Positions 24,387 through 36,299 of a DNA stretch of 64,000 bases are shown one piece after another. The notes beneath the pieces were generated by a model that saw only the letters and a list, made by a program, of their open reading frames with translations, was not told the DNA's origin and searched no databases. The stretch's first letter is position 1, and every line of letters begins with the position of its first letter. This DNA comes from Potamolinea sp. GTDB taxonomy: Bacteria > Cyanobacteriota > Cyanobacteriia > Cyanobacteriales > Coleofasciculaceae. The position numbers and the translations under genes were made by a program. The stretch lies in assembly GCA_042408245.1 (NCBI GenBank), contig JAYFMV010000019.1:3511-67510 (forward strand), given 5' to 3'.

Positions 24387-25964
24387 TTGACAATAACAGA
24401 AAACATGAATCAATCTAAAAAAACTGAACAAAAGCCTGACACTTTAACATCGGTAGGAGTCCATAAAATAAGGACGATGATCGAAGGTTTCGATGATATT
24501 AGTCATGGAGGTTTACCGATTGGGCGCACCACCATCGTCAGCGGAACATCTGGCACCGGAAAAACGCTGTTAGCGATTCAGTTTCTCTATAACGGAATTG
24601 CCTATTTTGATGAGCCTGGTGTATTTGTAACTTTTGAAGAATCTCCCACAGATATCATTAAAAATGCTTACAGTTTTGGTTGGGATTTACAACAATTAGT
24701 TAATGATGGCAAGCTATTTATTTTAGATGCCTCACCAGATCCAGAAGGACAAGAAGTTGTCGGAAACTTTGACCTTTCTGCCTTAATTGAACGCATTCAA
24801 TACGCCATTCGTAAATATAAAGCCAAGCGAGTTTCTGTTGATTCAATTACTGCAATCTTTCAACAATACGATGCTGCTTCAGTAGTAAGAAGAGAGATTT
24901 TTCGCTTAGTTGCACGTCTCAAACAAATTGGCGTGACAACAGTAATGACAACAGAAAGAGTTGAGGAATATGGTCCAGTAGCCAGATTTGGAGTGGAAGA
25001 ATTTGTCTCCGATAATGTGGCAATTGTTCGTAACGTCCTAGAAGGGGAACGTCGTCGTCGTACCATAGAAATTCTCAAGCTGCGTGGTACAACCCACATG
25101 AAGGGCGAATACCCTTTTACTATGACTAACCAGGGTATTAATATCTTCCCGTTAGGAGCAATGCGCTTGACTCAGCGTTCTTCCAATGTTCGCGTATCTT
25201 CAGGTGTTGAAACTCTTGATAAAATGTGCGGTGGTGGTTTTTTCAAAGATTCAATTATTCTGGCAACTGGTGCTACTGGTACTGGCAAAACTTTGCTGGT
25301 TAGTAAGTTTATCGAAAATGCTTGCTCGCGAGGCGATCGCGCTATTCTTTTTGCCTATGAAGAATCTCGCGCTCAGTTGTCTCGTAATGCTTATTCCTGG
25401 GGTATTGATTTTGAGGAAATGGAACAAAATGGTCTACTAAAAATCCTTTGCACTTACCCAGAATCATCAGGACTAGAAGACCATTTACAAATTATTAAAT
25501 CGGAAATTGCTGAATTTAAGCCTTCTCGAATTGCGATAGATTCCCTTTCTGCTTTAGCGCGAGGAGTTAGTAATAACGCTTTCCGGCAATTTGTGATTGG
25601 CGTTACTGGTTATGCAAAACAAGAAGAAATTACGGGATTTTTCACTAATACTACTGACCAGTTTATGGGGTCTAATTCAATTACAGATTCTCATATTTCC
25701 ACGATTACTGACACAATTTTGATGCTGCAATACGTGGAAATTCGCGGAGAAATGGCTCGTGCTATCAACGTTTTCAAAATGCGTGGTTCTTGGCACGATA
25801 CAGGTATTCGTGAGTACACTATTAGTGAAGATGGGCCAGATATCAAGGATTCATTCCGCAACTACGAAAGAATTATCAGTGGTTCTCCCACTCGTATTCC
25901 TGTGGATGAAAAGAGCGAACTTTCCCGAATTGTTCGAGGTGTACGCGAAAAATTAGAGGAATAA
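24387..25964 (+). CDS. kaiC: circadian clock protein KaiC
   Basis: Duplicated RecA-like domains, Walker A GTSGTGKT and GATGTGKT, C-terminus SFRNYERIISGSPTRIPVDEKSELSRIV. Colinear with S. elongatus KaiC along its length. Confidence 0.97.
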   Translation: MTITENMNQSKKTEQKPDTLTSVGVHKIRTMIEGFDDISHGGLPIGRTTIVSGTSGTGKTLLAIQFLYNGIAYFDEPGVFVTFEESPTDIIKNAYSFGWDLQQLVNDGKLFILDASPDPEGQEVVGNFDLSALIERIQYAIRKYKAKRVSVDSITAIFQQYDAASVVRREIFRLVARLKQIGVTTVMTTERVEEYGPVARFGVEEFVSDNVAIVRNVLEGERRRRTIEILKLRGTTHMKGEYPFTMTNQGINIFPLGAMRLTQRSSNVRVSSGVETLDKMCGGGFFKDSIILATGATGTGKTLLVSKFIENACSRGDRAILFAYEESRAQLSRNAYSWGIDFEEMEQNGLLKILCTYPESSGLEDHLQIIKSEIAEFKPSRIAIDSLSALARGVSNNAFRQFVIGVTGYAKQEEITGFFTNTTDQFMGSNSITDSHISTITDTILMLQYVEIRGEMARAINVFKMRGSWHDTGIREYTISEDGPDIKDSFRNYERIISGSPTRIPVDEKSELSRIVRGVREKLEE

Positions 25965-26089
25965 TTTCCTACTTCCGGGAAGCCAGTACATTGATCTTCC
26001 TGAACTGTTAAAACGTCTACACCTCGCATACGCAACCCAGCAGTAATTGCTCGGTGTATGTGTTCATCCATGTAGAAAGCTAGACTCAC
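25862..26089 (-). pseudogene. DUF5615 (PIN-like/Mut7-C) fragment, probable truncated toxin remnant
   Basis: The first ~35 codons (MDEHIHRAITAGLRMRGVDVLTVQED) match DUF5615. The remainder runs antisense into the kaiC 3' end with no family similarity. It is immediately downstream of its usual partner DUF433. Confidence 0.4.
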
Positions 26090-26430
26090 TTCAATAGTCC
26101 CTGTGTCCGTAGTCTAACAACAAAAGGAGATTCGCCTGCTTCTTTGCATAACTTTTGGGCATATTCTCCTCGTCGCTGGATATCTAGATCAAGTTCCTCT
26201 TTGTTATCCCAGTAATAAGCTAATGCTGAATAAATTTGGCTCATTGTTAAATAGGGATGTTGAAATTGTAACTCTTCAGGACTCCAACCATAGGCGATTT
26301 GAGCCATTACTAATTCAACTACTTTCATCGTAGTTCCAGCAATGATTGGGACATTACCTTCATTCAGTTGTACATATTTATGGGGAGTCGTTATAGATGT
26401 CATTATTATCTGTCTGATTTGATTCCTCAA
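26086..26430 (-). CDS. DUF433 domain protein (antitoxin-like partner of DUF5615)
   Basis: 114-aa ORF with a DUF433-like core. Its stop overlaps the DUF5615 start. Confidence 0.65.
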   Translation of the reverse strand: MRNQIRQIIMTSITTPHKYVQLNEGNVPIIAGTTMKVVELVMAQIAYGWSPEELQFQHPYLTMSQIYSALAYYWDNKEELDLDIQRRGEYAQKLCKEAGESPFVVRLRTQGLLK

Positions 26431-35801: not shown

Positions 35802-35915
35802 TTGCTGATCTAGGGTTTCGAGTGCGTCTTCTCGTCCAACAAATTTGGGAACGCCGCTATAGGGAAGATTTTGAGGCGGATTTAACGTTACCTGTTCCGC
35901 TTCAGGCGGCTGTAG

Positions 35916-36299
35916 TCAGAAGTTGAAGGTTTGTGTCCGATTATCGTTTTCGGTTGTACCTACATTCCCACCATAATTGTTCTTGACGATGTTTTTAATC
36001 ATCTGATTATATTTAGGTTGAGACTTCACCTCATTGGCGATTGCTTCTACTGTTGCTTTTACTTCATCGTTTTGCTTAGCAGCAGTTTCGACTTCCAGAA
36101 CAGCTTCACCGAAATATTCTGGATTTTCTGGGACAAGGGCAAGTTTTTCTGATGTCTTGGGAAACTTTTCTTTAATCAATTTCACCAATTTACCACTTTG
36201 CTCAAGTGCCTTTTCTCCCAGCACTTCACCACTCTTTTCAAATGCTTTGGTTACGACTAAAGTAGCGATCGCTCCTGCTGTTAGAGAAATAGGTTCCAT
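35916..36299 (-). other. N-terminal module of the NLR-like gene, separated from it by one in-frame TGA (interrupted gene, readthrough, or sequencing error)
   Basis: Same frame as 33801-35801 (offset 498 nt). Sequence after the TGA reads ...VPKFVGREDALETLDQQLQETQTVAISAIAGMGGVGKT, a typical NB-ARC pre-P-loop segment. The N-terminal module has an amphipathic Gly/Ala-rich first helix: ISLTAGAIATLVVTKAF. Confidence 0.6.

Follow-up and report, generated by a model that had tools for sequence, protein, structure and literature searches.

An in-frame UGA junction, possibly read through, between a Bell effector and its NLR sensor in a mosaic block of cyanobacterial accessory genes

Introduction

In a 64,000-nucleotide stretch of the Potamolinea sp. 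genome (contig JAYFMV010000019.1, positions 3,511 to 67,510 of the forward strand; hereafter the window, numbered from its first letter), ten elements on the minus strand form a 10.4-kb block, and we focus here on the junction between the first two of them, which encode a Bell-domain effector and an NLR, a sensor with NB-ARC and TPR domains. The open reading frames (ORFs) of these two proteins are one reading frame, split by a single TGA at 35916-35918. The same junction recurs in diverged relatives, is followed by a conserved hairpin and leads into a sensor frame that in the window has neither a start codon nor an amyloid motif of its own. Judged from sequence, the balance tilts slightly towards programmed UGA read-through at the Bell/NLR junction. 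This junction is the main interest of the block, as an altered form of a known system that yields a testable recoding prediction. For the block as a whole the result is deflationary: we are fairly confident that the 10.4-kb block forms a mosaic of modules conserved independently of one another, partly joined by recombination of TPR arrays, and not one machine, and it gives us no new defence system centred on the major vault protein it encodes (MVP).

The Bell/NLR pair

The features that make up the pair and its junction are as follows, with the basis of each in brackets.

35916..36299, minus strand: Bell-domain effector ORF, 127 aa, with a 'MEPIS' hydrophobic N-helix and a C-terminal amyloid-motif-like tail NYGGNVGTTENDNRTQTFNF (homologs, family description)
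35916..35918, minus strand: in-frame TGA ending the Bell ORF, in the context TTC TGA CTA CAG CCG (ORF reading, junction comparison)
35890..35907, minus strand: RNA hairpin, GCCTG - 8-nt loop - CAGGT, 5 bp, 8 nt downstream of the TGA (covariation, RNAalifold)
33801..35915, minus strand: NB-ARC+TPR sensor (NLR) reading frame, continuing right after the TGA (Pfam, ORF reading)
34896..35021, minus strand: small palindromic element, similar to miniature inverted-repeat transposable elements (MITE-like), inserted in frame, with the NB-ARC module on one side and the TPRs on the other (seen as a gap when aligned to the Nostoc orthologue)

The 127-aa gene and the NLR together are predicted to be a Bell/NB-ARC-TPR amyloid-signalling pair of a kind already described. 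Bell domains are bacterial relatives of the fungal HeLo/Hell and the MLKL membrane-targeting domains, and their MEPIS motif is a hydrophobic helix at the N-terminus in which residue 2 or 3 is acidic (bioRxiv 10.1101/2024.11.07.622273; 10.1101/2020.01.06.895854). The N-terminus of the window Bell protein, MEPISLTAGAIATLV, carries this motif and is conserved across our alignment A3. Its 53 homologs in databases are all stand-alone proteins of 90-153 aa; a profile search returned 557 matches, almost all of them short, and six longer ones carry other tails. The collinear gene adjacent to it, described as NLR-like in an earlier note on this DNA, indeed has NB-ARC and TPR domains in Pfam (33801-35801). 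The same amyloid motif at the Bell C-terminus and at the NLR N-terminus was not found in the pair; only read-through would bring it to the NLR. The sole member that has been functionally tested, Bab/Agp of E. coli, is a distant relative and acts in abortive-infection phage defence (bioRxiv 10.1101/2024.11.07.622273).

Comparative evidence at the UGA junction

Several lines of evidence bear on how the two halves of this frame are related. First of all, no stop interrupts the NLR frame over the 704 codons that follow the TGA. The first 38 of these codons, encoding LQPPEAEQVTLNPPQNLPYSGVPKFVGREDALETLDQQ, include no ATG, GTG or TTG, and the first canonical NLR start is a TTG at 35801, which comes after the FVGRED motif. 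Only with this post-stop stretch included do the profile matches of the window extend to position 2 (NB-ARC) and position 1 (AAA_16). Among relatives, too, 26 of 40 loci have no canonical start until past the FVGR-type motif, the other 14 having one before it.

Second, the junction is conserved across genera. TTC TGA CT(A/C) CAG (C/T)CG is found in L067, a contig of a close relative, in Coleofasciculus (L068) and in two Nostoc genomes (L073/74, L075), whose Bell proteins share only 54-59% identity with that of the window. A further 80 Bell family loci were drawn from metagenomes (31-57% identity), and 81 loci with a complete Bell ORF were counted. Their Bell ORFs end in TGA (58), TAA (15) or TAG (8). 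The frame runs on for 100 codons or more, or up to the end of the contig, after 48 of the 58 TGA stops against 3 of the 23 TAA/TAG stops (Fisher p = 7e-9), and the junction motif is present at 46 of the 58 and at none of the 23. All these loci are homologous, and the counts are thus to be read as non-independent events.

Third, the sequence after the stop is conserved both as a coding frame and at the level of nucleotides. A P-loop in frame 0 was found in 32 of the 48 loci, in 31 of them at eight differing offsets of 47-56 codons past the stop, and divergence between stop and P-loop ranks by codon position as 3 > 1 > 2, which is of the coding type. Codon +1 is a leucine CTN in 42 of the 48, so that the UGA is followed by C, the weakest termination context in bacteria; in the others it is mostly ATC, ATA, ATG or GTG (Ile, Met, Val). 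At codon +3, 44 of the 48 have TCG or CCG, with conserved third positions, and because Ser and Pro have other codons, this points to a constraint on the nucleotides.

Fourth, the two classes of stop differ in what the sensor carries. Of the 48 UGA-type loci only 1 has a second amyloid-motif copy downstream, against 13 of the 23 TAA/TAG-type loci, the latter usually having the classical layout in which an ATG-started NLR brings its own motif copy.

Finally, the stop is followed by an RNA hairpin at a fixed spacing of 8 nt; a spacer of this length before a structure is typical of recoding signals. In an alignment of 37 distinct junctions (A4), 97.3% of the hairpin cells are paired against 87.3% in shuffles, and none of 500 shuffles reaches the observed value. 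One pair (19-34) is CG in 20 junctions and UA in 17, broken in none; another varies between C-G, U-A, U-G and G-C. Only 11-35% of cells pair when the register is slid, and RNAalifold independently predicts the same helix. The covarying bases sit at non-synonymous positions, and RNA pairing thus explains them better than protein constraint does.

Two further kinds of locus were seen at such junctions. In the Bell loci L084, L130/L152 and L145 the same TGA-CTN junction follows the Bell ORF and leads into in-frame ORFs that are not NLRs and have hydrophobic stretches, which we read as putative transmembrane segments; this suggests a portable recoding cassette. L125, from 3501 onward, has two in-frame stops (TGA CTG TAG TCG) and then an otherwise intact NLR frame, either by decay or as a double read-through.

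Read-through and the alternatives to it

Read-through is proposed because the sensor, lacking a start codon and a motif of its own, lies in frame behind a conserved UGA junction with a hairpin. The elements expected of such a site are there, namely a conserved in-frame stop in a leaky context, a downstream coding signature, a structure at constant distance and, apart from the 14 loci with an earlier start, no alternative start codon. For the wider claim, that a large subfamily of cyanobacterial Bell/NLR pairs consists of one frame divided by a leaky UGA-CUR-NAG-YCG and a hairpin, with one motif copy for both partners, we judge the case to be evenly poised.

In such a scheme most ribosomes would stop at the UGA and release the free Bell effector with its amyloid motif, and a minority would read through, making a fusion of Bell, motif and sensor. 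A single DNA copy of the motif would thereby serve effector and sensor, and the leakiness of the stop would set the ratio of the one to the fusion. By analogy with the systems that have been studied, a trigger would make the sensor oligomerize, the amyloid motif would then template the free Bell protein, and the Bell N-terminal helix would damage the membrane and kill the infected cell.

Several points weigh against this proposal. The loci with a canonical start before the FVGR motif may initiate the sensor separately in some cases. Among the top 150 of the 557 profile matches, none is a Bell-NB-ARC fusion in which a sense codon takes the place of the stop. The NLR of the window may itself be impaired, owing to the 126-nt palindromic element inserted in it. 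This element has arms such as CCCCTCTCCTGCAAGGAGAGGGG and CCCTTCCCTCGCAGGGAAGGG, adds about 42 residues to the NLR and has related copies at 33423-33513 and 60341-60431.

The alternative that survives best, although we consider it unlikely, is that Bell and NLR are two ordinary genes, the NLR being translated by re-initiation after the UGA, at a non-canonical or nearby codon, or from the first downstream TTG or GTG, with the hairpin and motif serving translational coupling or mRNA stability. Gene callers do annotate separate genes in Nostoc, two loci have an ATG or GTG directly after the TGA, the 14 loci just discussed offer an earlier start, and Bell and NLR ORFs often lie within 10 bp of each other or overlap (Dyrka et al. 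2020, bioRxiv 10.1101/2020.01.06.895854). On the other hand, the next codon is CTA, CTC or CTT in 20 of the 48 loci. We know of no evidence that any of these three codons acts as an initiator, and the Leu/Ile/Val/Met pattern after the stop looks like amino-acid conservation in an elongating chain. In the window, where no ATG, GTG or TTG precedes FVGRED, a separately started protein would have a truncated NB-ARC domain. It would also have no amyloid motif with which to signal to Bell, of which the TAA/TAG-type relatives have their own copy.

It is less probable still that the NLR of the window is a decaying pseudogene, in which a nonsense codon and an element insertion have accumulated and which has no present function. 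The in-frame stop and the palindromic insertion would fit decay, as would the orthologue in L067, where the Bell gene is disrupted and another insertion follows the NLR P-loop. The frame of the window, on the other hand, has remained open over its 704 codons, and 48 diverged loci have the same stop at the same position, followed by long intact frames with coding-type substitutions; the stop is thus taken to be ancestral and maintained, and not a recent lesion.

Selenocysteine insertion at the UGA is very improbable: an in-frame UGA closely followed by a conserved hairpin is a signature of bacterial selenoproteins, and the hairpin here is backed by covariation, but its stem, which would have to act like a selenocysteine insertion sequence (SECIS), has only 5 bp, the residue would lie in a linker without a catalytic role, homologs show neither Cys nor another sense codon there, and no Rfam family matched at the gathering threshold, SECIS families included if the library holds any.

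To our knowledge, programmed read-through of stop codons is very rare in cellular bacterial genes. If it does take place at this junction, it would control the ratio of an immune sensor to a cell-death executioner and would explain how sensors gain an amyloid motif that they appear to lack. One class of bacterial NLRs would then also be mis-started or overlooked by annotation pipelines and by screens for motif pairs. The published screen of this kind asked that both proteins, as annotated, carry the motif (Dyrka et al. 2020, bioRxiv 10.1101/2020.01.06.895854), and we infer that for this reason it would have missed the UGA-type class. In the literature available to us we found no paper reporting a UGA read-through junction in Bell/NLR pairs, and the in-frame UGA junction is apparently unreported.

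The block as a mosaic of modules

The remaining features of the block are listed here from the NLR side downwards.

30666..33335, minus strand: MVP homolog, 889 aa, full-length, solitary (Pfam, phmmer)
30224..30682, no strand assigned: tandem array, 2.8 copies of a 164-nt unit with four hairpins per unit (repeat and structure analysis)
28866..30152, minus strand: AAA+ ATPase, Orc1/Cdc6-STAND type, 428 aa, no sensor repeats (Pfam AAA_16/KAP)
27237..28865, minus strand: partner of the ATPase, 542 aa, with a conserved 235-aa N-domain and a TPR array, chimeric at its 3' end (Pfam TPR_12/TPR_10, comparison)
26768..27178, minus strand: basic 136-aa protein, candidate HNH-like nuclease toxin (W51-H52-H53, H71, N75 and H87 invariant)
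26472..26768, minus strand: acidic 98-aa partner, candidate immunity protein or antitoxin, coupled via TAATG (always after the 136-aa gene in L067-L072)
26086..26430, minus strand: DUF433 protein, antitoxin-like half of a DUF433/DUF5615 pair (Pfam E 1.1e-8)
25862..26089, minus strand: remnant of a DUF5615 (PIN-like) gene, first ~34 residues recognizable (profile 3-34 of 110, E 0.027)

The earlier note had described ten co-directional elements running from 36299 down to 25862 on the minus strand, with TAAATG and TAATG junctions, and had suggested that they form a single defence or conflict system. The elements are all present as described, and the junctions lie between the ATPase and TPR genes (TAAATG) and between the 136-aa and 98-aa genes (TAATG). 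A run of ten co-directional genes is by itself no evidence of function, and the suggestion of a single system did not hold up: the genes are not co-located elsewhere and each belongs to a separate module. What does survive is part of the conflict flavour. The Bell/NLR module is a conflict system and two other modules resemble toxin-antitoxin (TA) or toxin-immunity pairs, but we have no evidence that the MVP or the ATPase pair takes part. The stretch thus resembles a small defence-island-like accumulation.

That MVP, ATPase, TPR sensor and nuclease effector cooperate in one multi-component defence or conflict system is, in our view, highly improbable. Co-direction, the short or overlapping junctions within sub-pairs and the content of an NLR plus TA-like pairs would suit such a system. 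On the other hand, none of 60 MVP loci has another gene of the block within 10 kb, each gene pair recurs alone elsewhere, and the MVP gene is set off by gaps of 465 and 513 nt and by terminator-like hairpins. The earlier remark that no named system is recognizable agrees with PADLOC, which matched no system, its generic TPR and P-loop matches being well under system level. Searches against NCBIfam gave no equivalog match, and the promoters and terminators found by a scan were no more numerous than expected from shuffled sequence. Recombination of TPR arrays, finally, accounts for at least part of the present gene order.

The evidence for this recombination comes from L067 and from Coleofasciculus (L068), in both of which Bell, NLR, 136-aa and 98-aa genes follow one another contiguously. 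Positions 26454-27436 of the window match the L067 NLR 3' end, spacer and 136/98 pair at 95%. In the 542-aa TPR gene, the last 252 nt, the C-terminal peptide (..NLQILRDNR..) and the 58-nt downstream spacer are of the NLR type, unlike those of ATPase-linked orthologues. By this comparison the gene is a chimera with an NLR-type 3' end and spacer, and at least part of the present order therefore arose as near-identical TPR arrays recombined. Such recombination inside the TPR-coding arrays would have joined the ATPase pair to the 136/98 pair and left about 6.5 kb (MVP, repeats, ATPase and N-domain) between the NLR and its former 136/98 neighbours. The near-identical TPR segments that the earlier note took to flank the block are real, the two TPR genes sharing 88-94% DNA identity, but they bracket only the core of MVP, repeats and ATPase and not the whole block.

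Two findings count against the mosaic reading. A single crossover, as in the integration of a circle, predicts an ATPase-type 3' end on the NLR, which keeps an NLR-type end; this model is insufficient. Furthermore, Bell, NLR and the 136/98 genes occur together in three flanking contexts, those of the window lineage, L067 and L068, and a functional link between the Bell/NLR and 136/98 modules is conceivable.

As for the surroundings, kaiA, kaiB and kaiC adjoin the block on the plus strand (22936-25964). Just outside its other end are a stand-alone gene with a GIY-YIG nuclease domain (36481-36900, plus strand) and a small overlapping gene pair (37170-37656, minus strand), which corresponds to DUF4160/DUF2442 in the identical Logan contig L156; these small mobile or TA-like cassettes add to the setting of the block. 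In L067 (1-5375), genes matching BrxL and a faint PglZ match (BREX-like) are found about 3 kb away from the Bell/NLR-136/98 cluster; this defence-island setting is absent from the window.

The individual modules

The ATPase and its TPR partner carry the domains that had been assigned to them, a P-loop ATPase of the AAA_16/KAP type and a TPR_12/TPR_10 protein. The 428-aa ATPase shows the order of parts expected of a STAND NTPase, first a P-loop NOD and then helical and winged-helix domains. Sensor repeats and an effector were not found within its chain; the TPRs sit on the neighbouring gene, and the chain has no effector domain. Its family counts more than 1400 matches at 62-96% identity across cyanobacterial orders, and wherever the context is readable, the ATPase is directly followed by a gene with the 235-aa N-domain (51-100% identity) and TPRs. 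This adjacency is seen in L061, L062, Nostoc sp. HK-01 (L063/64) and Okeania (L065/66), with differing flanks and no MVP. The pair looks like a split STAND-type switch.

The MVP homolog is full-length, with Vault (1.2e-60), MVP_shoulder (6.4e-52) and Vault_2/3/4 domains in Pfam, and phmmer aligns its residues 20-875 with solved MVP structures at E about 1e-294. Vault repeats, an SPFH-like shoulder and a cap-helix region thus stand in a single chain, as expected of an MVP of ~850-900 aa. Cyanobacterial homologs of MVP have already been reported (bioRxiv 10.1101/872010; PMC3762200). We compared it with the 60 loci from other genomes (65-83% identity, up to 10 kb of flank on each side), mostly of filamentous cyanobacteria, with a few Thiomargarita/Beggiatoa-like bacteria and Chloroflexi. 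The neighbourhood of MVP, ATPase, TPR and nuclease genes that the earlier note had put forward for comparison is not conserved, MVP being solitary in 60 of 60. In tblastn, the other block proteins found nothing in these loci but one generic TPR-repeat match, and all-against-all clustering of 1414 flanking ORFs gave no true neighbour family in more than 6 of the 60. MVP is a solitary gene in variable surroundings, without an operon partner, and the bacterial protein stays an orphan without a genomic clue to its function. A Ser/Thr-kinase-like gene of about 840 aa lies directly upstream of MVP in four of the loci (L034, L037, L048, L056), at a distance of 75-82 nt in three of them, and is the sole hint of a recurrent partner.

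The tandem repeats next to MVP were also found as described, with 2.8 copies of the 164-nt unit. The unit is strongly structured (z = -3.7) and includes terminator-like stems; the array extends over the stop codon of MVP, contributes the final few codons of the gene and probably terminates MVP transcription. Partial copies occur in the window at 13772-13857 and 44021-44057 and in L018 at 7153-7203. Since parts of its hairpins are scattered elsewhere, the array represents small dispersed repeats that were amplified locally. No match was found in an Rfam search of the whole window at the gathering threshold, and the repeat is no known RNA. The idea of a vault RNA was dropped, since other genomes do not have the repeat beside their MVP genes.

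The 136-aa and 98-aa genes had been labelled a WHH nuclease and its immunity protein. Neither label has a family match in Pfam, even at E<=5 (WHH or HNH families for the 136-aa protein), nor does the 98-aa protein have one in NCBIfam; a predicted model of the 136-aa protein (pLDDT 95.5) gave no significant fold match, and no Pfam domain is recorded for any of its listed homologs. What speaks for the labels is the invariant W-H-H..H..N..H pattern of the one protein and the basic/acidic nature of the coupled pair, with isoelectric points of 9.3 and 4.05. The pair recurs without ATPase or MVP in six mutually unrelated contexts, namely L067, Coleofasciculus (L068/69), Scytonema (L070), Microcoleus (L071) and a metagenome contig (L072), and in L070, L071 and L072 without any NLR. 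The 1-nt overlap of the window is repeated in the gene calls of L068, L069, L070 and L071; in L072 it is called as 4 nt, and in L067 the caller mis-started the 136-aa gene. The 136-aa protein is stand-alone, of 136 aa in most listed homologs with shortened and lengthened variants of 75-210 aa, and the polymorphic-toxin architecture of a C-terminal domain behind a trafficking region was not found in it. It is plausible, going by these features, that the pair is a mobile, translationally coupled cassette of an HNH-like toxin and its neutralizer.

The DUF433/DUF5615 label holds for its first half. DUF433 is intact, but DUF5615 matches only residues 3-34 of the 110-residue profile, the rest of its ORF running antisense to the 3' end of kaiC; an intact adjacent pair is not present here, DUF5615 having decayed. 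In Microcoleus (L071, 6032-6674 and 8797-9117), the 136/98 genes lie among DUF433/DUF5615, RelB/ParE-like and Uma2-family genes, surroundings that echo the DUF433 gene adjoining the 136/98 pair in the window.

Comparison with known systems

Set against the known systems, the modules depart from their models to differing degrees. The MVP homolog aligns from end to end to the MVPs of human and rat, with all Pfam vault repeat types and the shoulder; it differs from eukaryotic MVP in that the 60 loci hold no TEP1, vPARP or vault RNA homologs, nor another conserved partner, nearby. The 136/98 pair shares with Tox-WHH/HNH-EndoVII toxins and their immunity proteins (Zhang et al. 2012, PMC3482391) the invariant W-H-H then H/N/H, the order of a basic protein and a coupled acidic small protein, and the form of a mobile cassette. 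It departs from them in that the 136-aa protein lacks a Pfam WHH/HNH match, a significant fold match and a trafficking domain, and in that its partner belongs to no Pfam or NCBIfam family. Among STAND/Orc1-Cdc6 ATPases (NLRs, MalT, Avs and RADAR RdrA), the ATPase of the block is distinct in having its sensor repeats on an adjacent protein with its own 235-aa N-domain, in lacking an effector domain and in its unusually high conservation across cyanobacterial orders.

The closest correspondence is that of the Bell/NLR pair with the Bell/NLR BASS pairs (Dyrka et al. 2020, bioRxiv 10.1101/2020.01.06.895854), with which it shares a MEPIS Bell protein with a G/N/Q-rich C-terminal tail, a collinear NB-ARC+TPR gene immediately downstream and a filamentous cyanobacterial host. 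It differs in that its NLR has no second motif copy and no start codon; in their place stand a conserved UGA in frame, set in a fixed context, and a hairpin downstream of it. These latter features are those of read-through signals such as phage Q-beta coat/A1, gag-pol of murine leukaemia virus (8-nt spacer plus structure) and the plant-virus and human UGA-CUA(G) sites. The likeness lies in a leaky UGA followed by C, as CUA or CUG, in a stimulatory structure about 8 nt downstream and in a short abundant and a long rare product from one ORF, which for the block is a prediction from sequence. The block, on the other hand, presents this arrangement in a cellular bacterial gene family and with a simple 5-bp hairpin.

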